Source: a virus | Taxonomy: Duplodnaviria > Heunggongvirae > Uroviricota > Caudoviricetes | Direction: 5' to 3' (one strand) | Virus record (IMG/VR): IMGVR_UViG_2563366953_000003 | Length of the DNA: 46,537 nucleotides | Shown: positions 24,280 through 40,775 of the stretch, one piece after another | Numbering within the stretch: position 1 is the first letter of the stretch | Layout of the letters: each line of letters starts with the position of its first letter | The notes under the pieces: generated by a model | What the model saw: only the letters and a program-made list of their open reading frames with translations | Told to the model about the DNA's origin: nothing | Databases searched by the model: none | Translations under genes and position numbers: made by a program

Positions 24280-24300
24280 TTGCAAGCATTATACGCAAAC
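24280..24300 (-). promoter_or_regulatory. Candidate late promoter (pR'-like) -10 element
   Basis: Minus-strand TTTGCGTATAATGC with a TATAAT hexamer overlapping the Q-like stop codon, about 70 nt upstream of the terminator hairpin. Confidence 0.35.
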
Positions 24301-24960
24301 GTCGTCCAAATGGTGCTGATAATGATGCAAAGTTGCAAGAAGTGCCATTTCATCAAGTGCTCTCACCGTCTCTTTCATTCCTACCCAGTGCGGGGAGTAT
24401 GTTTCGCACCAGGTGGAACGAGAAACAGACAACATTCCAGCTAGCGCAGATCCAGCCATCTCCTTAAAGTCCTCGCGTTTATTTGCTGCTGCGACCCCCT
24501 GCACAGACAACCACACCAGCGAAAGCAGGCGCTTGACTACTTTTCTCTGAGTTGACGCGGGGATGTTTGCTTTATAGCGATTCCAGACAGCCTCACAAAT
24601 GGCGGTTTGGTGCTTGAACGCAAGGTCACCACCGTAGCAATAGCGCAACCACGCCTGCTGGCTAACGTCGAGCGAGTTCACGGCGCGGCGCCACGATGAA
24701 TCAGCGAATTCAAAATCATTCATCGGCGGCGCGGGACGACGTCTGCTGAAACTTTCCAGGGCATAAACTGGCGTAACCAGAGCATCAACGGTCCGGTCCT
24801 CCAGCTGCACACGGTGAATATGTTTGCGTGGGTATGCGTTTTTGTCTGCTGGCGGGTGCTCACATAATGCTTCCAGTTGCCCCTTAGAACCGCCAGACAA
24901 ATCCCGCAATGCAGCGCGCAGTTTTATGCGGGTATATTCCAATAAATACTCGTTACTCAT
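24289..24960 (-). CDS. Putative late antiterminator (Q-like)
   Basis: 223-aa ORF directly upstream of the pR'/tR' signature and lysis genes. Not similar to lambda Q itself; the call is by position. Confidence 0.45.
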   Translation of the reverse strand: MSNEYLLEYTRIKLRAALRDLSGGSKGQLEALCEHPPADKNAYPRKHIHRVQLEDRTVDALVTPVYALESFSRRRPAPPMNDFEFADSSWRRAVNSLDVSQQAWLRYCYGGDLAFKHQTAICEAVWNRYKANIPASTQRKVVKRLLSLVWLSVQGVAAANKREDFKEMAGSALAGMLSVSRSTWCETYSPHWVGMKETVRALDEMALLATLHHYQHHLDDVCV

Positions 24961-26251: not shown

Positions 26252-26884
26252 TTATTTTTCATTTCCATAAACATGGGTTAACCATTTTCTAATAGTTGAC
26301 TCCGCCGGAACGTCAGCATATTTTTTTACGAGAATTTCGTTAATACGTGCCACCGCCGCACTAACCCGTGCGTGGGGGTTATTTGTGAAAAAAACCTCTG
26401 CAATCTGTAATGCCTCGTCTTTTAGCCTGTGCTGTGGCCTCCCTCCGCCCTTTGTTCCCAGATAACGCGCCAGTTGTTTGAACCGGTACGCCACGATTAG
26501 TGGCCGCATCATCATATTGAAAAAATCACGTGCATCGTCGTCCTCTCCTCGCGCTATCAACAGCGCAAAAAACAGGTACGGTATTGTGTATACGTCAGGG
26601 GAAATCATTACGCGCCTGCACACAGTCGGCGCCAGTGCGATCAGTGTGTCTGCCAGCGCGTCGCCCTCTCCTCCACGTTTGTAATACCGGTAGAGTGGTC
26701 CTAAGTCGAGTTCACTGGTATTGAATCCAGTCACAGCCTCACGAACCTCGTCTGCCAGCGCGTTGTAAATCGCCCCTGTACGTTTTGTGTAGAGTCTCCG
26801 GGTTGCCCCTCTGTTATCCAGCGCTCGCAACATGTCCAGTCGGGTGACAAACGTTTCAGGCCAGTCCTCATAGAATGATCTCAT
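26252..26884 (-). CDS. Hypothetical protein
   Basis: About 210 aa from the internal ATG at 26884; no recognisable motifs. Confidence 0.4.
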   Translation of the reverse strand: MRSFYEDWPETFVTRLDMLRALDNRGATRRLYTKRTGAIYNALADEVREAVTGFNTSELDLGPLYRYYKRGGEGDALADTLIALAPTVCRRVMISPDVYTIPYLFFALLIARGEDDDARDFFNMMMRPLIVAYRFKQLARYLGTKGGGRPQHRLKDEALQIAEVFFTNNPHARVSAAVARINEILVKKYADVPAESTIRKWLTHVYGNEK

Positions 26885-27002
26885 ATCCACCTCGAATAAT
26901 AAAAACAGCACTATTTGCACAATTTATTATTCGTTGTCACATCGCAGGGTTCTATAAAAAAGAAAACCCGCCGAAGCGGGTTAGTTATTCATTTGCACCA
27001 GG

Positions 27003-27281
27003 TTATGAGGCCATACCGTAGGCTTTTTTATGCATCCCATGGTCATAGCCCATATTATATGCTTCAAAAGCATCTTTATGACGGACATGCCCAGCCTGGC
27101 TTTCGGGTAAATCACCTAAAACAGAGTCATCAACCGCACGCGGAACGCCGATTAATGCATGCCACATACCTTTATCATAGGCACATCCACAACACTTGTG
27201 CCGCCCAACGTTACCCTGATTTGCAGAAAGAACATCAAACATACTGTCGTGACGATGTGACTTTTTACAGATGTGTTTCAT
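27003..27281 (-). CDS. Hypothetical Cys/His-rich small protein
   Basis: 92 aa with CCGC and multiple His; followed by a strong stem-loop region. Confidence 0.35.
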   Translation of the reverse strand: MKHICKKSHRHDSMFDVLSANQGNVGRHKCCGCAYDKGMWHALIGVPRAVDDSVLGDLPESQAGHVRHKDAFEAYNMGYDHGMHKKAYGMAS

Positions 27282-27424: not shown

Positions 27425-27848
27425 GATGCGATTCTAAAATCTTCGCAACCTCCAGATCCTATCCAGGACCAAGAAAAACTTCAATGAAAAGATCAAGTTA
27501 GATCTGTATTTTTTTACAGATGTAATAAATCACACATGTAATAGCCTTCCCTTTCCGTTCTCATCTGGCCTCTTGTGGCATCCATTTTTTTAAGAAACAT
27601 ATGGACGCCTAAAAAACCACTAATGTCATGATTATCATGTATGTTTTTACTGGAAACATTGAGCCATCCACAATGCAGCGTAAAAAGCAAGCAATTCACA
27701 AGATTTTAAAGTGATTTATCTGGAAGACTTTACTACTAACAGTTAATATCGTACCAGAAGTGCAGAATTTGCACTTTCACAGGAAAGTGGTACGGAACAT
27801 GTTGTCTATATTTCGACCAACAATCGTAATGCAGTAACTGGAGGAGCT

Positions 27849-28337
27849 ATGGCTACCAACCCAAGAGAGCACGCCCGGCGAGTGCTGGACACGTTCTGGT
27901 GCGGGCGTGGTTTCCCTGTTGATCCAGCGAAAATTGCTCACGACATGGGATTAGATGTTTTTATTACCGATCTTCCTGGGAAAGTTTCTGGCGCACTGAT
28001 TAAACAAAAAGATCAAGATCCAGCGATCTTTCTAAACAGTGATGACAACAAAGTTCGTCAACGTTTTTCATGTGGGCATGAGTTGGGGCATTACATCGCC
28101 CGGCAAGCATCGCATAGCGATGAATATGAGTACGTTGATTTACGTGGCGAAACCGCAAGCGCCGGAACGCATCCTGATGAAATTTTTGCGAACAAGTTCG
28201 CAGCAGAACTTCTGATGCCGGTTGATGAGGTCAGAAAACTACACGCTGACGGCCAACCAAGTTATATAATGGCGCATTATTTTGGCGTATCTGACGATGC
28301 GATGACTTATCGTTTAAAGAACTTGAGGTTGGGGTAA
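27849..28337 (+). CDS. ImmA/IrrE-family zinc metallopeptidase (M78-like)
   Basis: 162 aa with HEXXH motif (SCGHELGHYI) in the typical ImmA context; GGAGG RBS 6 nt upstream; opposite strand to flanking phage genes. Confidence 0.7.
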   Translation: MATNPREHARRVLDTFWCGRGFPVDPAKIAHDMGLDVFITDLPGKVSGALIKQKDQDPAIFLNSDDNKVRQRFSCGHELGHYIARQASHSDEYEYVDLRGETASAGTHPDEIFANKFAAELLMPVDEVRKLHADGQPSYIMAHYFGVSDDAMTYRLKNLRLG

Positions 28338-28346
28338 CGCTTTAGA

Positions 28347-28952
28347 ATGCCATCGGATGACGATTTTAACAGCCGTTTCAAACAGGAAGTTGCACGCCGA
28401 CTGAAGGATTCCCTCAACCTACACCGTCAGTTAGCAGAAGAGGTTGAGCCGGAGGAGGATGAAACTCCGGTTCAGTCTCCTGATGAAACTTCACCTCAGC
28501 CAAAGATTTCGCACGCCCCCAAAAAACCGTCTGTCCGTATTCACGGAATAGCCAGAAAAAGAGCTGCCGAAGCTCGCAAAATGGCTGTAGCTGCGTCAAT
28601 CAAAAGAATTCCAACTGCTACACTATCTCAACAAGTCACCCGTACTGAGAGTAAAATCTTGACCGAGTTCACATCAGTGAAACAGGTGAATTCACTTGAT
28701 ACTGAGCATGAGCGCAAACAACTCAACAACAAAGATTTTGAAGCTGAAATCGATCTAAAAAAACGCTATGGCAAATGGTTCCTGATTATCCTTGCTTGCC
28801 AGCTTTTAATAATGAATGGTGTATTTTTTGCCACTGGTGCTGAATGGCTTGTATTTAAAGACTTAACGCTCCAGTTGTACATGGGCGGTACTTTGACAGA
28901 GGTATTCGGCCTCGTGCTGGTCGTGACAAAATACCTTTTTAAACGCAAGTAA
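28347..28952 (+). CDS. Membrane protein: charged low-complexity N-terminal region, two C-terminal TM helices
   Basis: 201 aa, 9 nt downstream of the ImmA-like gene (operon). Hydrophobic segments WFLIILACQLLIMNGVFFATGA and LTEVFGLVLVVTKYLF. Confidence 0.5.
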   Translation: MPSDDDFNSRFKQEVARRLKDSLNLHRQLAEEVEPEEDETPVQSPDETSPQPKISHAPKKPSVRIHGIARKRAAEARKMAVAASIKRIPTATLSQQVTRTESKILTEFTSVKQVNSLDTEHERKQLNNKDFEAEIDLKKRYGKWFLIILACQLLIMNGVFFATGAEWLVFKDLTLQLYMGGTLTEVFGLVLVVTKYLFKRK

Positions 28953-28977: not shown

Positions 28978-29010
28978 AGGCCCTGATCAAAGGGCCTTGA
29001 TAAATTAGCT
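28978..29010 (+). terminator. Weak terminator-like hairpin after the ImmA-membrane operon
   Basis: AGGCCCT-GATCAA-AGGGCCT followed by an interrupted T-tract. Confidence 0.3.
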
Positions 29011-29554
29011 GTGCGTTGAAAACAGATAGTTATTCCCATTAGTTCCAACGTAATACACATCAAAAAAATCACCATTCTTTTGCTCTAACGTCAACACCTA
29101 CCCTTAAAAGAATAATTCTCTAAGAATGAGAGAATGTTGTGTGTATTAGATAAGATATGAGCTGACACATCTATGGCGTGGAGCCGAATTTAATTTGACA
29201 GTCCACTTTGTGCCAGGAACGGACCTTAAGAAACTATCCGTAATCTTCAGGCCGATTTGTATGTCTATACCTTACAGAACTGCCAGGAGTTATTGATATT
29301 TGATAGTCGGTGAATAGCTGGCGACAATCCCCCCATATATTATATAGTAAAGATAAATTACAACTAAAAAATCATAAAAAATATCATCCATGCCTGTATA
29401 GTTTTTTAGAAGGGCTGTTTCATATGAAATGAATGCCAAAAAAATTTAGATCATGTTTTTATTTCCACATCTTTTGAAGATTTTATTTTCAATATTATCT
29501 ATCTCTTTCCTCACCCATGAATTTTCTCCAGCAGAGATAAATTAAAAAATCTCA

Positions 29555-30907
29555 CTACGCATCTATTTCGGCATAGAACATTCGCAAAATAAATTTTCTA
29601 AAGTGCTGGTGGGATTTAAGGAAATTGACGCCTAAGTATGGCATGTCTCCATGAAGAGGGTGGTTTTCCAATCCGTTATTCTTACAAAAATCATAATCTA
29701 ATTTAAGAATGTCAGTATAGAGATGTCGTATTAAACCTGTAGACCTAATAGCGAAGTTATTACAGAAAACATCCTCAAGTAGAGACCTTTGATAGATTTC
29801 CCAATTCATAAAGCCATATTCAACGTGGACGTATTTCCCATCTGTATTTCTAGTGGTGAGTTCAATTACCTGCTTACCTATACGATATAATTGAGAGATC
29901 CATGTACAATGTAAACCACTTAGGACATCAATATTAGCCTCATATAGTTCTCCTTCACCTAGTTTACCAATTAATTCAGATATGTGAGGAGTGTAAGAAT
30001 TTGGGTCTGGAATATCATCATAGTTGTCGTCTTCTGTGGATAAATGCTGGACACTCCCGACAGCATAAGGATTCATGCCAACTAGTACTAATGAATTCGT
30101 AAAAGGTAATGCCTGAGATAATTCAGGCCATAACTGAGAGCAATAAGTAAAACCATGAACTCCAGATTCTTCCATATACTGAGCTGCAAGGCAGGAAATG
30201 TTATCAAATTGACTAACAAATGAATGTAAAAGTTCTTCTCCTCTAGCTGCATCCCATCGCTCTGCGTCATACTCCCAGGATAATTTACAGACACTAAAAC
30301 TATCTTCTCTAAATGCAATATTTGAGAAAGTCGCTAACTCTGTTTGGTCTGGAATCCATAATTCAAGTTTAAGAGAGGTAATATCAAGAGGATCAGAGAA
30401 TGTTGGAATTAAAGTAATGATATCCCTATTGTCAAATATTAAACTTTGGATGACAGCATCACGTGCTATTCTGGTTTCCATTGGTGATATTAAAATATAC
30501 ACACTGTCATTTTTCGTCATGGATGGAAATAATGTTGTCATATGGTTTGAATATGCTAACAATTCAGTGAATGCTTGCCTTTCAGTTTGTTCACTTTTTT
30601 TAAGCTCTATGACAGCAAGCCCAGTATCATCACAGAATATAGCCAAAAAATCGGCTCTAATTGTTGAGTTTGAATTTTGTTCTAAAGGAACTTCGCAGCC
30701 GATAAATTCCAGTCCATAAAGCTTAGAGTGAAGATTGGATAGTTTACTATTTATTCTGTTTTTTATTAGCAGTTGTGCTGTTACATCAGAGAGATCTTCG
30801 TTGAATTCAAGTACTTCAAGACCTGCAGGTTCAATAAGCAGTTCGGGAAAATTGTTCCTATTTTCCCATATGTAATTTTGTATTTCCTTTTCTGTGAATT
30901 TAATCAT
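29555..30907 (-). CDS. Hypothetical protein with N-terminal PD-(D/E)xK-like nuclease signature (AT-rich island cargo)
   Basis: 450 aa; IRADFLAIFCDDTGLAVIELKKSEQ has the D...(D/E)xK pattern; strongly AT-rich codon usage unlike the flanking phage genes. Confidence 0.5.
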   Translation of the reverse strand: MIKFTEKEIQNYIWENRNNFPELLIEPAGLEVLEFNEDLSDVTAQLLIKNRINSKLSNLHSKLYGLEFIGCEVPLEQNSNSTIRADFLAIFCDDTGLAVIELKKSEQTERQAFTELLAYSNHMTTLFPSMTKNDSVYILISPMETRIARDAVIQSLIFDNRDIITLIPTFSDPLDITSLKLELWIPDQTELATFSNIAFREDSFSVCKLSWEYDAERWDAARGEELLHSFVSQFDNISCLAAQYMEESGVHGFTYCSQLWPELSQALPFTNSLVLVGMNPYAVGSVQHLSTEDDNYDDIPDPNSYTPHISELIGKLGEGELYEANIDVLSGLHCTWISQLYRIGKQVIELTTRNTDGKYVHVEYGFMNWEIYQRSLLEDVFCNNFAIRSTGLIRHLYTDILKLDYDFCKNNGLENHPLHGDMPYLGVNFLKSHQHFRKFILRMFYAEIDA

Positions 30908-31440
30908 TAATCAACCCTTATTATTACTTATATAATTGCCACCATCTTGATGGTTATAAAATTATGTACAATTAATTATATTTTTTAAAGTTACGGCCTT
31001 CAGTGTTCCCTAATGTACTGTTTCATATGTAATGATATCTATACTGTCTCATCTAGCAAGGTTACAAACAAAATTTTTCTTCCGGAAATGTGATCATGGC
31101 GATAAATCAACATGAGAGTTTATCTACATTGTACATAGTTAAAGCATAAGCAGGTGTGAGTAAGAAACTAGAGCATACTGAAGATTCGCTTGCTCACTGG
31201 AATTACACAATTTTACTGAGTGGATGGCGTTGCATCGACCCGTTGAACTCACAGCCATGAGCGGACATGTTTTACAGCGGAATAAATTCAGCATAGTTAG
31301 TGGATTTACACGGAGGATTAGTTTTTGAGAAATCTTGATAAAATTGTAGAGCTTGTTAATATGAAAACAAGAAATTAAACTAACAGTCAAATAAAGAAGC
31401 TCAAACACATCCCCTACTTAATTGAAAAGGATTATTAGCT

Positions 31441-32340
31441 ATGATTGCCCCACTTATTAGTAACTTACAGAAAGATATTGCGCTACTTCAGCTTTATATC
31501 GAACAACGCAAACAGACTGGCTTTCATGACATGGAAAGAATGATTGAGTCATTGACCATTTATATGTTTCGCGCACTGAAAATGGGGGAACTGGAAAACA
31601 TGAATCAGATTAAAGTTAACTTTCCCGCCATTGATTTAGCTGACAATAAAAACATGATAGCAGTTCAAGTTACAACGAAAGCAACCCCGGCAAAAATTAA
31701 AAAAACAATCGCAGCCTTTGAAAAAGAAAATAAATCAGGAAAGAGTCTAAAAGACATATACCCTTTTTTATATATTTTTGGGTTTTGTAAAAGCTCAAAA
31801 TGCTCAGTTCCAAGTTATTGTAAAGTAATCGACCCCAGCTATTTTGTAAATGAACTTTGCGATAAAGCAGATGAAAATATGATCCTTGATATGCTTGATG
31901 CCATTCATCGCCATCAGGATTATACATTATTATCGCCATGGGATGATAGAGATTCACTCGAAATAATACTCAATGTTATTAATCGCAATGCTATTAAACA
32001 CAGGATGAGTTGCGAAGGAAGCATATCTGATATGCTTGCCGGTTTAAAAGAAATTAACGAAATAATTACAAAAGGTACAATCCAACGTAAGCAACGTTCA
32101 AAATCGATATCTGATTTCAAGGATCAAAGCATGGTTAAATTCCTGAGAGGTGTAATGGATGATCTGTCTGTTATTCAAGCCATAGTGAACAAATCAAAAG
32201 TTAACCAAAGTGATATGGTTTGTATTAGCTCTGAAGATATGATTAACATTGATAATTTAAAAGATAAAATTGCAAACGATTCATCAGAGATTGCAAGGCT
32301 AAATAATATTGATATAATACTAAAAATTGTTGAATTATAA
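31441..32340 (+). CDS. Hypothetical protein (AT-rich island cargo)
   Basis: 299 aa, AT-rich, divergent from the 450-aa gene across a roughly 530-bp AT-rich intergenic region. Confidence 0.45.
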   Translation: MIAPLISNLQKDIALLQLYIEQRKQTGFHDMERMIESLTIYMFRALKMGELENMNQIKVNFPAIDLADNKNMIAVQVTTKATPAKIKKTIAAFEKENKSGKSLKDIYPFLYIFGFCKSSKCSVPSYCKVIDPSYFVNELCDKADENMILDMLDAIHRHQDYTLLSPWDDRDSLEIILNVINRNAIKHRMSCEGSISDMLAGLKEINEIITKGTIQRKQRSKSISDFKDQSMVKFLRGVMDDLSVIQAIVNKSKVNQSDMVCISSEDMINIDNLKDKIANDSSEIARLNNIDIILKIVEL

Positions 32341-32667
32341 GTAGCGATTTAATAATAACAAATAATAAACAGCAGGCTTCATTGAATAATATTTATTTGG
32401 AGCCTCTTTATTGTTTATCGACTTTATTTCTTCACTTATACCTGTCCTGTTGAAGAAGACCGTTATGTACAAGAAGCTGTTAACATAAGTGAGCATCATT
32501 ATCTATGATTAGGAAAAACATGGAAAAGTTTGTACTGAATTTTTCCAACGTTTTGACAAAAGTCTGTAATCCTGCAGTAACTTGATGAGGTGGGGCGTGT
32601 TGCCCCTACCCCAGCGAGTTAATAAGTAATAAGAAAATGGCACCCTCTAATATTATTTTTAAATTTA

Positions 32668-33333
32668 CTAATTATGTTTATTTTTACCAACAACCACATA
32701 TGAACTGCCAGCTTTGCTCCATGACTTTATTACTGCTAAATTGTTATCTAAGCAAATTTTACTTACAATATTCTCATCCAATAAGCCATAATAGAAAGCA
32801 TTGCGAGAGTTTTGGTATATATATCCATGCAAATGTTTAATTCCAGTCTCATACTTTTTGAAATAAGAGCTTTTGTATTGATTAACAATAATTGCTTCAC
32901 CATCATTTTTTAATAATCTCCCAATCTCATTGATGATTTTGTAAATTGTTGATTTACATGGAATTGCGGAAAGCACGTTTGCGCAAAGTATGAAATCATA
33001 ATTATCTTTTATTTTATCTATACTTTCAAAAGGGACAACATTAGCATTTTTATAATTATTAGCCACATACTCTGGAATTGTGGTTTGTACGCCTCTGATA
33101 ATTTGCACTCTTTCTAACTGTTTTCTGGAATCTAAAAATGTCACAGCTTCAAATTTATTTACTAATTGTTCTGAATATCTAAGCTTTCCACATCCGAAAT
33201 CAAGGGCTATGCCATTTTTAACAGAATTTTCAATATAGTTACAGAGATAGTTAGATGGCATAGTATGCGGTTTTGCTGCATTTTCTGAACGTATAGTCAT
33301 TCCATTTATTTTGTAATTCAAAACTAACCTCAT
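32668..33333 (-). CDS. Class I SAM-dependent methyltransferase (small-molecule/RNA type, not an obvious DNA MTase)
   Basis: 221 aa; motif I LDFGCGKL, acidic post-I VTFLD, motif II FDFILCANVL, motif III LLKNDGEAIIV; no DPPY/NPPY-type motif. Start ATG abuts the upstream stop (TAAATG). Confidence 0.65.
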   Translation of the reverse strand: MRLVLNYKINGMTIRSENAAKPHTMPSNYLCNYIENSVKNGIALDFGCGKLRYSEQLVNKFEAVTFLDSRKQLERVQIIRGVQTTIPEYVANNYKNANVVPFESIDKIKDNYDFILCANVLSAIPCKSTIYKIINEIGRLLKNDGEAIIVNQYKSSYFKKYETGIKHLHGYIYQNSRNAFYYGLLDENIVSKICLDNNLAVIKSWSKAGSSYVVVGKNKHN

Positions 33334-34041
33334 TTAAAAAATACTGTTATTATTAAAAAATTCCTTTATCTTATCATCAGGTATTTGTCTGACTTGGCCT
33401 TCAGTTCTGGGTTTAACGGATGCAATAAAAATAAGAAAATTAAAGACAACAATAAAAATAACCCACAACCAAAGATTTTTTAAAGAACCGGTTACAGAGA
33501 GTAAATGGGTTATTTTAGCAAAACTTATTACTAAAACAGTAATAAATGCAATCACAGTATGTTCAAAGAAAACCCAAAAGTAATAAACCTTATTCCAGAA
33601 GAGCTCAACATAATGTTTATCTTTTAACTCATTAACTTCTGGGTAATACAGTTTGTTCATTACTTTGGAGGATTCATCACTAGTTAATTTTCTTGTAATG
33701 CCTGCAACTTGCGCCAATGGTTTAACAATTAAGTAATTATCCCATGCTTTTCTTATTCCAAGAATTTTTGCCACGTTATTATGTAGATCTAAAGCCCCAC
33801 TAATCACAGACCAAAAAATTGAGAATGCAATTGGTAATATGCCGAATGTTAATATCCACTTAATAAATTCTTCGTAGTCTTTGATTGGTGGAATGTACTT
33901 GGCATTAATTCCAACCAATGGTATGTAGCCATAAATAACCAATGATAGGTAAAATATAAATGTAGTAATAAAAGTTGCCTTATGGAGCATGGGTAACATT
34001 TCATTATAATTCTTTGGCGGTTCTAACATTTTACTCTCCAA
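33334..34041 (-). CDS. Polytopic membrane protein (co-operonic with the methyltransferase)
   Basis: 235 aa with about 4-5 hydrophobic helices; AT-rich. Confidence 0.5.
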   Translation of the reverse strand: MESKMLEPPKNYNEMLPMLHKATFITTFIFYLSLVIYGYIPLVGINAKYIPPIKDYEEFIKWILTFGILPIAFSIFWSVISGALDLHNNVAKILGIRKAWDNYLIVKPLAQVAGITRKLTSDESSKVMNKLYYPEVNELKDKHYVELFWNKVYYFWVFFEHTVIAFITVLVISFAKITHLLSVTGSLKNLWLWVIFIVVFNFLIFIASVKPRTEGQVRQIPDDKIKEFFNNNSIF

Positions 34042-34408
34042 ACATTCAGAAAACGTTAGTTTTATATAATTGCACGATTTTACTAACGCACTTAAAGTTT
34101 AAATACTACTAGTCTTTTTATTTAACACTGCAATTTTATCTAAATCTTATTGATTGATCTAGTCCTCGAAGAAGCCTGCCATACATATATCTTTTCTGAC
34201 TGCATCCACTTTTATGTCTGTCACATCCACACTAGCTCCTGTAATATTTTAAATACCTCAAATCCGTCATCAGTACCGACGCTTAAATGTTCGATCCTCA
34301 CTCACTGCGGACCCTCAGCTCAGCCAGATAGTCCGCTTTGTGACAAAAGTGGAAGTAGCTAACAAGTATCCTAAGCGCAAATAGAGTATTTCCGCCCCAA
34401 ACAACCTG

Positions 34409-39497: not shown

Positions 39498-39974
39498 TCA
39501 TGCATGGTGGCCTTGCGCAGTGCTTATCACTGCCCCTCGCGTCGCTACCAGCGCCGCTATTGCTTCGTCAATTTCCTGAATAGTTATCTCTGGCGCGAAG
39601 TGGAGATGTACAGCGTTAATCGCTTCCACCCCTTCTTTTGCCGCCAGCGTTGCCAGCAAAACGGGATCGCCCGGCGACTCCAGACGCGCCCGCCGTTCTG
39701 CGGGTAGCACGGCTTTCATCACACTGGCCAGCACCTGAGTTTTTCGGCGCGCCGCCGTTGTCTCGCCACGTAACCAGCGAAAGATTTTCTGCCGATTGTT
39801 GTTGATGGCTCTCCAGTCCACATTGCCGTCCGCGTCCTCAAATTCATGTAGTCTCAACTCATCATTGCGTCCCTGACTGAACCAGGCCCGGCAGATTTCA
39901 ATCGTGACGAGTTCCTGCCCTGCCCTTGCCGCCCAGGTCAAAATCTCTTTTTGTAATTCCTCTGGGTTTTCCAT
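39498..39974 (-). CDS. Putative CII-like regulator (YdaT-like)
   Basis: 158 aa immediately downstream of the Cro-like gene; WRAINNNRQKIFRWLRGETTAARRK resembles my recollection of Rac YdaT. Low certainty. Confidence 0.4.
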   Translation of the reverse strand: MENPEELQKEILTWAARAGQELVTIEICRAWFSQGRNDELRLHEFEDADGNVDWRAINNNRQKIFRWLRGETTAARRKTQVLASVMKAVLPAERRARLESPGDPVLLATLAAKEGVEAINAVHLHFAPEITIQEIDEAIAALVATRGAVISTAQGHHA

Positions 39975-40330: not shown

Positions 40331-40361
40331 TCCCTACAATTAAACCTTGTATCCTTACGGT

Positions 40362-40775
40362 ATGAACACAAAAACGAAAAACATGGCTTTTGCTAGCCGA
40401 CTACAACGGATTCTAAAAGACTTAGGCTGGTCTCAATCTGAGTTAGCTCGCCATATTGGGGTTACAGCTCAATCAGTTCAGGCATGGTGTAATGGGGTAA
40501 CTCCAAGAAAAGATAAATTAGACAAGCTAGCAAAAGTGACCGGATACCCTGTTCATTTTTTCTTCATGAATGAAGGAGAATATTTGGATGAATCCACGCT
40601 ACACCCCGGTAATTACAATCAAGAACTAACCCCGCAAGAACAGGCTCTACTGCAACTATTCAGAGGACTGCCTGAGAGCGAAAAAAATAAACTAATCAAT
40701 GAGCTAAAAGAAAAAAGAGAGCACTTCGATCTACTGCTAAAAGAACTACTTGAAGCCAAAAACCAGACAAAATAG
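40362..40775 (+). CDS. CI-like repressor (XRE-family HTH)
   Basis: HTH segment WSQSELARHIGVTAQSVQAW; start set at the first ATG (40362), whereas the track ORF begins with a TTG at 40347. Confidence 0.7.
   Translation: MNTKTKNMAFASRLQRILKDLGWSQSELARHIGVTAQSVQAWCNGVTPRKDKLDKLAKVTGYPVHFFFMNEGEYLDESTLHPGNYNQELTPQEQALLQLFRGLPESEKNKLINELKEKREHFDLLLKELLEAKNQTK

Follow-up and report, generated by a model that had tools for sequence, protein, structure and literature searches.

The window analyzed here, 46,537 nucleotides (nt) of IMG/VR record IMGVR_UViG_2563366953_000003, is a lambdoid prophage with head, tail and terminase genes, a lysis cassette, the antiterminator Q, replication genes, an immunity region and a right-end integrase, and nearly all of its named genes lie on the − strand. 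Two open reading frames (ORFs) on the + strand, 27849..28337 and 28347..28952, encode a 162-amino-acid (aa) zinc metallopeptidase of the M78 (ImmA/IrrE) type and a 201-aa protein. An initial annotation, made from the sequence alone, had described the first product as an ImmA/IrrE-like metallopeptidase with a HELGH motif, and the second as a co-directional partner with a charged N-terminal region and two C-terminal transmembrane (TM) helices, encoded on the strand opposite to the surrounding genes. Profile searches bore out the former description, and coordinates, hydropathy and an AlphaFold2 model the latter. The statement that no helix-turn-helix (HTH) repressor stands beside the pair also held: a Pfam scan of the neighboring window ORFs of at least 90 aa found none, and the closest HTH_3 gene (40347..40775) is 11.4 kb away. 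We conclude that the two genes probably form a mobile, prophage-borne toxin-antitoxin or abortive-infection cassette of the HTH-less RosmerTA subtype that is typified by RmrA_D25/RmrT_D5 of Gordonia phage Kita.

RESULTS

A single-domain M78 peptidase with invariant catalytic residues

The rmrA-like gene (27849..28337, + strand), the predicted antitoxin gene, encodes a single-domain protein that matches Pfam Peptidase_M78 (PF06114) over residues 32-157, covering profile positions 3-123 of 123 (E = 7.7e-18; 64.9 bits against a cut-off of 22). The zinc-binding and catalytic motif HELGH occupies residues 77-81 (H77, E78 and H81; 28077..28091, +), and the third zinc ligand is E111 (28179-28181, +). 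All four residues were invariant in an alignment of 13 diverse relatives, indicating that enzymatic activity is under selection, and they are the counterparts of the H/E/H/E residues that make up the CapP active site (PMC13228613). In the window peptidase, no cysteine is present in the loop from HExxH to E111.

Fourteen PADLOC RmrA models matched the peptidase (best E = 5.8e-12), as expected of a RosmerTA zinc-peptidase antitoxin, and so did the PADLOC capP model (E = 2.4e-25; model positions 3-151 of 242). The RmrA models describe proteins of 357-400 aa, and the window peptidase covers their peptidase segment only, for example positions 166-266 of 363. Pfam detected no HTH fused to it, in contrast to many RmrA proteins, and at only 162 aa it has neither the central HTH nor the C-terminal GAF domain of CapP- and IrrE-type proteins. 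The best-matching solved structure was CapP (7t5t; residues 79-152 of 291 aa), and PHROGs places the protein in phrog_87, a metallo-protease family.

The Shine-Dalgarno sequence of the peptidase gene, GGAGGA (27840..27845, +), marks the left edge of the conserved cassette. When nine loci from different genera were compared, this was the sole invariant upstream element. Since the remaining upstream DNA was unconserved, the mobile unit is the two genes.

Anatomy of the membrane protein

The rmrT-like gene (28347..28952, +) starts 9 nt past the peptidase stop codon and encodes the 201-aa membrane toxin candidate. The protein is matched over its full length by phrog_5346, to which no function is assigned (E = 1.9e-129). 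It had no match in Pfam, NCBIfam or PADLOC, RmrT models included, and a tblastn search with it against 50,697 phage records returned none. Its anatomy was worked out from hydropathy, an alignment of 23 homologues (A1) and an AlphaFold2 model. Hydropathy placed hydrophobic segments at residues ~141-166 and 175-193, and the model contained helices at residues 4-32, 119-167 and 173-199, with 33-118 at low confidence. The monomer model is of low confidence overall (predicted local distance difference test, pLDDT, 58), and the score is below 50 at residues 33-57, 59-69 and 86-118.

Four regions, all encoded on the + strand, could be distinguished. A conserved N-terminal helix, predicted to be cytoplasmic (residues 4-32; 28356..28442), is supported by the alignment and the model; its residues L19, L23 and R27 are invariant within Enterobacterales, and the helix is not kept outside this order. 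It is followed by a charged, proline-rich linker (residues 33-118; 28443..28700) that the alignment and the low pLDDT indicate to be disordered and to which all length variation among the homologues (130-239 aa) is confined. The alignments further revealed a conserved juxtamembrane helix (residues 119-142, …ERKQLNNKDFEAEIDLKKRYGK; 28701..28772) with a hydrophobic-basic dipeptide (L-K/R) that is kept across phyla. The C-terminal part is a two-helix membrane hairpin (residues 143-195; 28773..28931), in which hydropathy and the model place TM1 at ~143-165 and TM2 at ~173-195 with a short loop between them.

TM2 carries a membrane-embedded glutamate, E185, within the motif E-V-x-G-L-x-x-V-V-T-x-Y-L-F-K. 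It is near-invariant across enterobacterial genera and more conserved than the peptidase, and its motif is common to the partners found in actinophages and clostridial phages, in which the Glu position is E or Q. The basic residues on both flanks of the hairpin suggest that both termini of the protein are cytoplasmic, and the long N-terminal part would then be within reach of a cytoplasmic peptidase. We found no reason to call the protein a holin, as it has no Pfam match and the lysis genes of the window (~23.0-24.4 kb) lie elsewhere, on the opposite strand.

Nine viral contigs in IMG/VR (our loci L044-L052; e.g. L046:3998-4078) retain no more of the toxin gene than its final 25-28 codons (…YMGGTLTEVFGLVLVV.KYLFKRK) and lack a peptidase gene. 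Some of these remnants contain in-frame stops, and they look like scars of cassette loss or replacement.

Both proteins are homologous to the RosmerTA pair of phage Kita

Gordonia phage Kita gp32/gp33 was validated as a RosmerTA-type toxin-antitoxin pair by Ernits et al. 2023, where gp32 (YP_009301393.1, Peptidase_M78) is named RmrA_D25 and the transmembrane gp33 (YP_009301394.1) RmrT_D5 (PMC10440598). The Kita toxin rapidly halts translation, transcription and replication, and it depolarizes and permeabilizes the E. coli membrane (PMC10440598). The window peptidase was 43% identical to gp32 over 157 residues by BLASTP (E = 1e-41), and the window toxin was 32% identical to gp33 over the hairpin (E = 1e-7). 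The toxin relationship was also evident between profiles. When the enterobacterial family (A1) was compared by hhalign with a profile of Kita gp33 and 15 non-enteric partners (A6), the match had a probability of 97.7% (E = 1.5e-12; 93 columns) and spanned the juxtamembrane helix and both membrane helices. Other two-helix partners of M78 peptidases, described below as class B, stayed at noise level (E = 0.12; 19 columns), which argues against a pure composition artifact.

The two pairs share the peptidase-first, tight operon, in which a stand-alone M78 peptidase of ~160-180 aa is directly followed by a small protein whose N-terminus is acidic and cytoplasmic and whose C-terminus forms a two-helix hairpin. 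Also common to both are the TM2 motif with its membrane-embedded Glu and terminal LF[K/P], and the location in an accessory slot of a temperate phage. RmrA_D25, with 178 aa, is likewise too short for an HTH. They differ in that the Kita toxin has 119 aa rather than 201, the window protein carrying in addition a conserved helix at its N-terminus and a long disordered linker; in that the Kita genes overlap by 4 nt, whereas those of the window are 9 nt apart; and in that the Kita host belongs to Actinobacteria and the window pair to Enterobacterales. Taken together, the two homologies and the C-terminal hairpin identify the window pair as an enterobacterial member of the known HTH-less RosmerTA subtype.

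The two genes are linked in nearly all loci assessed

A peptidase gene lay directly upstream of the membrane-protein homologue in 31/31 fetched loci, with gaps of −4 to +11 nt. These loci, gathered by exact-protein look-ups and from IMG/VR (a scan of species-representative genomes yielded 3 loci only), span about ten prophage slots in Escherichia, Klebsiella, Enterobacter, Serratia, Salmonella, Plesiomonas, Cronobacter, Leclercia and Buttiauxella. Seven divergent homologues, from Klebsiella, Enterobacter, Serratia, Salmonella, Plesiomonas and Cronobacter and as a 155-aa E. coli variant, each had a 162-aa M78 gene directly upstream. An upstream peptidase was also present in 3/3 further homologues, from Mycobacteroides, Cellulosimicrobium and one metagenome contig.

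The linkage was equally clear from the side of the peptidase. When an alignment of the peptidase clade was used to search IMG/VR, at least 383 relatives were recovered; the best 80 were taken, and 76 of these could be assessed. A small ORF (97-264 aa) with predicted membrane helices stood directly downstream of the peptidase in 74 of the 76 viral loci, and the two genes overlapped in 45 of the 74. Divergence of the peptidase was correlated with that of its partner (Mantel r = 0.77, p ≤ 0.001). The peptidase-membrane pairing is conserved far beyond chance, and the prospect, raised in the initial annotation, of an unrelated membrane protein with no genetic linkage elsewhere did not materialize. 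No HTH gene was a conserved neighbor in ten other contexts, as it would be in an ImmA/ImmR-type module; the membrane protein is the sole invariant neighbor of the peptidase.

The pair occurs in 452 of 5426 complete E. coli genomes (~8%), including O25:H4 isolates from human infections, at a fixed place between the ORF6N gene and Q with neighboring cargo that varies among strains. Elsewhere the cassette was found adjoining the integrase at a prophage end, between antiterminator and lysis genes, beside ParDE, Hok or HicAB, and after gene A in P2-like phages. The Salmonella copy stands beside a truncated integrase and genes of Salmonella pathogenicity island 5. Its persistence there points to a host-benefiting function that is independent of a working prophage. 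In a Mycobacteroides abscessus prophage (our locus L134:2513-6360) the copy is located in another accessory slot, between lysis genes and a WXG100-TNT polymorphic toxin locus.

Stand-alone M78 peptidases have several classes of membrane partner

The same pairing was present in sequenced phages, namely Gordonia phages Polly, Kita and ThankyouJordi, Mycobacterium phage Che9c, Clostridium phage c-st and Burkholderia phage Carl1, as well as in P2-like coliphages (after gene A), Pseudoalteromonas phage ACA1 and a Helicobacter prophage. The partners have at least three architectures. Class A, which includes the window protein, has a C-terminal hairpin with the motif E-[VI]-x-G-[IL]...LF[KP]. Class B, in P2-like phages, Carl1 and ACA1, has two membrane helices followed by a C-terminal amphipathic helix, and class C, represented by Che9c gp33, has a single C-terminal membrane helix. 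Homology of class B to the window toxin could not be demonstrated (E = 0.12), the profile-profile match extending over 19 columns only. None of 57 partner proteins belonged to a known family in Pfam, NCBIfam or PADLOC, and PHROGs gave no function; Holin-X matches were weak and appeared in only 4 of the 57 (best E = 4e-4).

This clade of stand-alone M78 peptidases pairs near-obligately with small membrane proteins across Proteobacteria, Actinobacteria, Firmicutes and Campylobacterota. The initial annotation had regarded a membrane partner as an unusual arrangement for such a peptidase; within this clade it is almost always the rule.

Some more distant relatives are arranged differently. In Burkholderia phage Milagro (our locus L028:886-2007) and a Helicobacter prophage (L031:879-1878), the gene upstream of the peptidase, and not the downstream one, encodes a protein with one or more predicted N-terminal membrane segments and a charged C-terminal tail; the Milagro pair adjoins a Vsr endonuclease and a C5 DNA methylase. 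Leptospira phage LE1 (L030:84-1799) has, downstream of a more distant M78 peptidase gene, a gene for a soluble protein of 394 aa in place of a membrane protein; the N-terminus of the soluble protein (LFLSVDIQGST) resembles, by eye, a nucleotidyl-cyclase motif. Evidently, as LE1 illustrates, the M78 hub has other effector partners.

Che9c gp32/gp33 (L021:2417-3312), a peptidase with a single-helix membrane partner, is found right after a HicAB-like pair. A Che9c lysogen is reported to resist several mycobacteriophages, and the genes responsible are 'to be described elsewhere' (PMC6426596). The gp32/gp33 pair is a candidate for this resistance.

Neighborhood of the pair in the window prophage

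Genes on the − strand flank the pair on both sides: 27003..27281, 26252..26920, a DUF1367 gene and Q (24289..24960) on one side and 29555..30907 on the other. A consensus scan gave no promoter upstream of the pair, the total number of matches in the region being at chance level. A nested palindrome is located 56-98 nt upstream of the peptidase start (27751-27793), with a perfect core, GTGCA-N5-TGCAC (27760-27774), inside GTACCAG…GTGGTAC. It is partly common with the Salmonella locus and absent from other contexts, and it could be an operator or a hairpin in the 5′ untranslated region.

Directly downstream of the pair, at 29000-34100, is a low-GC island (31-35% GC versus ~50% for the prophage) with four genes. 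These encode a 450-aa protein weakly similar to HSDR_N and to type II restriction enzymes (29555..30907, −), a SMEK-domain protein with a match to an Argonaute-associated PADLOC model (31441..32340, +), an S-adenosylmethionine (SAM) methyltransferase (32668..33333, −) and a 235-aa protein without matches (33334..34041, −). Since E. coli M21816 has different genes in the same slot, the region between the ORF6N gene and Q is a variable hotspot for cargo or defense genes.

The immunity region, of YdaT/HTH type, lies at ~39.5-40.8 kb. It contains the repressor candidate (40347..40775, +), a 142-aa HTH_3 protein that lacks an S24 autocleavage domain, and, on the opposite strand, a YdaT-family gene (39498..39974, −). 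In a near-identical E. coli prophage, a small Cro-like regulator is annotated between the YdaT-family gene and the HTH_3 repressor candidate. The sequence gives no obvious indication of how this repressor candidate would be inactivated for induction.

DISCUSSION

A toxin-antitoxin reading of the pair

The homology to Kita RmrA_D25/RmrT_D5 supports one of the two functions suggested in the initial annotation, that of a membrane effector under protease control, following abortive-infection or toxin-antitoxin logic. The other, a membrane-anchored regulator, found no support, as the searches revealed no known domain, DNA-binding or otherwise, in the cytoplasmic region of the 201-aa protein.

By analogy, we infer that the E. 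coli pair behaves like the Kita pair. The 201-aa protein would be the effector, with its C-terminal hairpin in the inner membrane and both ends in the cytoplasm, and when unrestrained it would depolarize and permeabilize the membrane. The 162-aa peptidase, made first from the shared transcript, would be the antitoxin, and it would restrain the toxin most likely by cutting its cytoplasmic part. Neutralization is probably enzymatic, given that the catalytic residues are invariant and that no stable complex is predicted. The candidate cut site, near L137-K138, is the conserved hydrophobic-basic dipeptide just before TM1; CapH is reported to be cleaved at F|R (PMC13228613), and the resemblance makes it plausible that the dipeptide is the peptidase site. 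Basic residues at this position are also expected from membrane topology alone. Upon infection by certain phages the restraint would fail and the membrane potential collapse, so that the infected cell would cease to support phage growth and the lysogen population would be protected.

Several observations weigh against this interpretation. The Kita peptidase neutralizes its toxin incompletely, the Kita pair protects E. coli against two BASEL myoviruses only, and AlphaFold gave no reliable complex for it (pDockQ 0.05) (PMC10440598). The experiments on toxicity, partial neutralization and phage defense were all made with the Kita homologue, in E. coli (PMC10440598). The toxin homology is restricted to the compositionally biased juxtamembrane helix and hairpin, and the N-terminal extension of ~115 residues with its conserved helix has no counterpart in the Kita toxin, nor do PADLOC models recognize the window toxin. 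In the literature that we searched, we found no RosmerTA system with demonstrated cleavage of the toxin by its M78 antitoxin, and no mechanistic paper on RosmerTA neutralization. Finally, the repressor of this prophage, a short HTH protein of XRE type, lacks an autocleavage domain, so a role of the peptidase on the repressor is possible in this particular phage.

A broader joint proposal is tentative, and we doubt that it holds in full. It states that the peptidase continuously clips the toxin at the juxtamembrane dipeptide until a phage factor stops the clipping, and that M78 peptidases with at least three unrelated classes of membrane partner are among the most widespread prophage cassettes, uncalled by current defense-finding models.

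Alternative explanations

Some of the features discussed above would also suit a gasdermin-like, protease-activated pore, in which the N-terminal region holds the protein inactive until an infection-sensing peptidase, now the activator, removes it and frees the pore-forming hairpin. The long, variable and disordered linker between the N-terminal helix and the hairpin looks accessible to a protease, the catalytic residues are conserved, and the dipeptide before TM1 resembles the CapH F|R site (PMC13228613). However, the positive-inside rule already predicts basic residues beside a membrane helix, and the full-length Kita toxin is toxic alone and becomes less so when the peptidase is co-expressed, which is the opposite of activation. 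On these grounds we consider an activating peptidase unlikely. The Kita result also bears on the proposal that the peptidase is itself the toxic effector, like the HTH-peptidase PD-lambda-2B or the Lit protease, and the membrane protein its sensor or inhibitor. PD-lambda-2B, an Xre-M78 fusion, is toxic by itself, and M78 domains are part of several defense systems, but toxicity in the Kita pair resides in the membrane protein and is neutralized by the peptidase. The peptidase-first gene order, moreover, fits the antitoxin-first order that is commonest overall in type II toxin-antitoxin pairs, and a toxic peptidase is highly improbable.

A trans-acting anti-repressor of the ImmA type, which would cleave the XRE-type repressor of the prophage for induction and have the membrane protein as sensor, modulator or passenger, is suggested by the systems for which the M78 family is best known (ImmA/ImmR, IrrE/DdrO and CapP/CapH), by the lack of an S24 domain in the repressor candidate and by the label 'antirepressor' that the authors of Pseudoalteromonas phage ACA1 gave to their relative. 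The window peptidase, however, has neither the HTH nor the GAF sensor domain of IrrE and CapP, and its sole invariant neighbor is a membrane protein. The cassette also occurs in prophages with unrelated immunity, including an S24-type CI in Plesiomonas, P2-like phages, actinophages and the decayed Salmonella remnant. This distribution over unrelated immunity systems and a decayed prophage disfavors the anti-repressor, which we judge quite improbable. Superinfection exclusion would assign the defense to the hairpin, blocking incoming phage DNA through a host inner-membrane protein, with the peptidase only tuning its level. HK97 gp15 and T4 Imm have been reported to block DNA entry by binding a host inner-membrane protein. 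The near-invariance of TM2 across genera, above that of the enzyme, is expected for a specific helix-helix contact, and the accessory-gene positions of the cassette in prophages would agree with such a role. No similarity to known exclusion proteins was found, though, and the Kita homologue permeabilizes membranes and stops all macromolecular synthesis, as an effector and not a passive block would; exclusion is accordingly a very unlikely function. The toxin-antitoxin reading thus remains the one that we favor.

Comparison with known systems

Canonical RosmerTA (RmrT/RmrA; Millman et al. 2022) likewise combines an M78-type zinc-peptidase antitoxin with a toxin of otherwise unknown family. It differs from the window pair in the length of RmrA (357-400 aa in PADLOC), of which the window peptidase matches the peptidase segment only, and in its toxin, as no PADLOC RmrT model matches that of the window. 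Among the NetFlax D25 proteins, an N-terminal HTH is frequent and not universal, and it is absent from the window peptidase. ImmA/ImmR, IrrE/DdrO and CapP/CapH share with the pair the peptidase fold family, the HExxH + Glu active site and a gene adjoining that of the presumed protein partner; in the window, however, the partner is an HTH-less membrane protein and no XRE gene adjoins. IrrE and CapP bind single-stranded DNA through HTH and GAF domains (PMC13228613), which are absent from the window peptidase.

PanT_D11/PanA of NetFlax resembles the pair in having a small depolarizing toxin, with a disordered N-terminus and then a membrane segment, and a cytoplasmic antitoxin that contacts the toxin region preceding this segment. 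Its antitoxin, however, is a toxin-binding Panacea (DUF4065) domain and not a metallopeptidase. Lambda RexAB, Sbash gp30/gp31 and CarolAnn gp43/gp44 are also prophage two-gene abortive-infection modules with a cytoplasmic partner and a membrane protein, the latter proposed to collapse the membrane potential. They have no sequence relationship to the window pair, RexB-type proteins have four membrane helices, and the RexA-type partners are DUF4747 proteins rather than peptidases, with a proposed role as activators. Sbash gp30/31 and CarolAnn gp43/44 were considered as the same system and rejected, being RexAB-like with no protease in either paper. A pair of an M78/ImmA peptidase and a membrane protein is not mentioned in the main text of the P2/P4 hotspot paper or the DefensePredictor paper, and the E. 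coli proteins of the pair are not mentioned in the main texts or NetFlax supplements searched by accession.

Implications

The type of system is already known, and the Kita pair is its experimentally studied precedent. What is new here is an Enterobacterales family, common in E. coli, that has been named only 'hypothetical protein', together with the failure of PADLOC to recognize the toxin and the breadth of the peptidase-membrane pairing. The analysis provides a function prediction for a pair annotated only as 'ImmA/IrrE family metallo-endopeptidase' and 'hypothetical protein'. As the PADLOC models miss the toxin, defense surveys based on them probably do not call the cassette. An anti-repressor function should not be assumed by default for a lone ImmA-like prophage gene, since in this clade the constant partner of such a gene is a small membrane protein. 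The pair also offers an E. coli-native model for how an ImmA-like peptidase restrains a RosmerTA toxin and for which phage signal releases the toxin. If the proposed mechanism is true, a proteolytic antitoxin would act by site-specific cleavage of a membrane toxin, and not by binding or transcriptional control.

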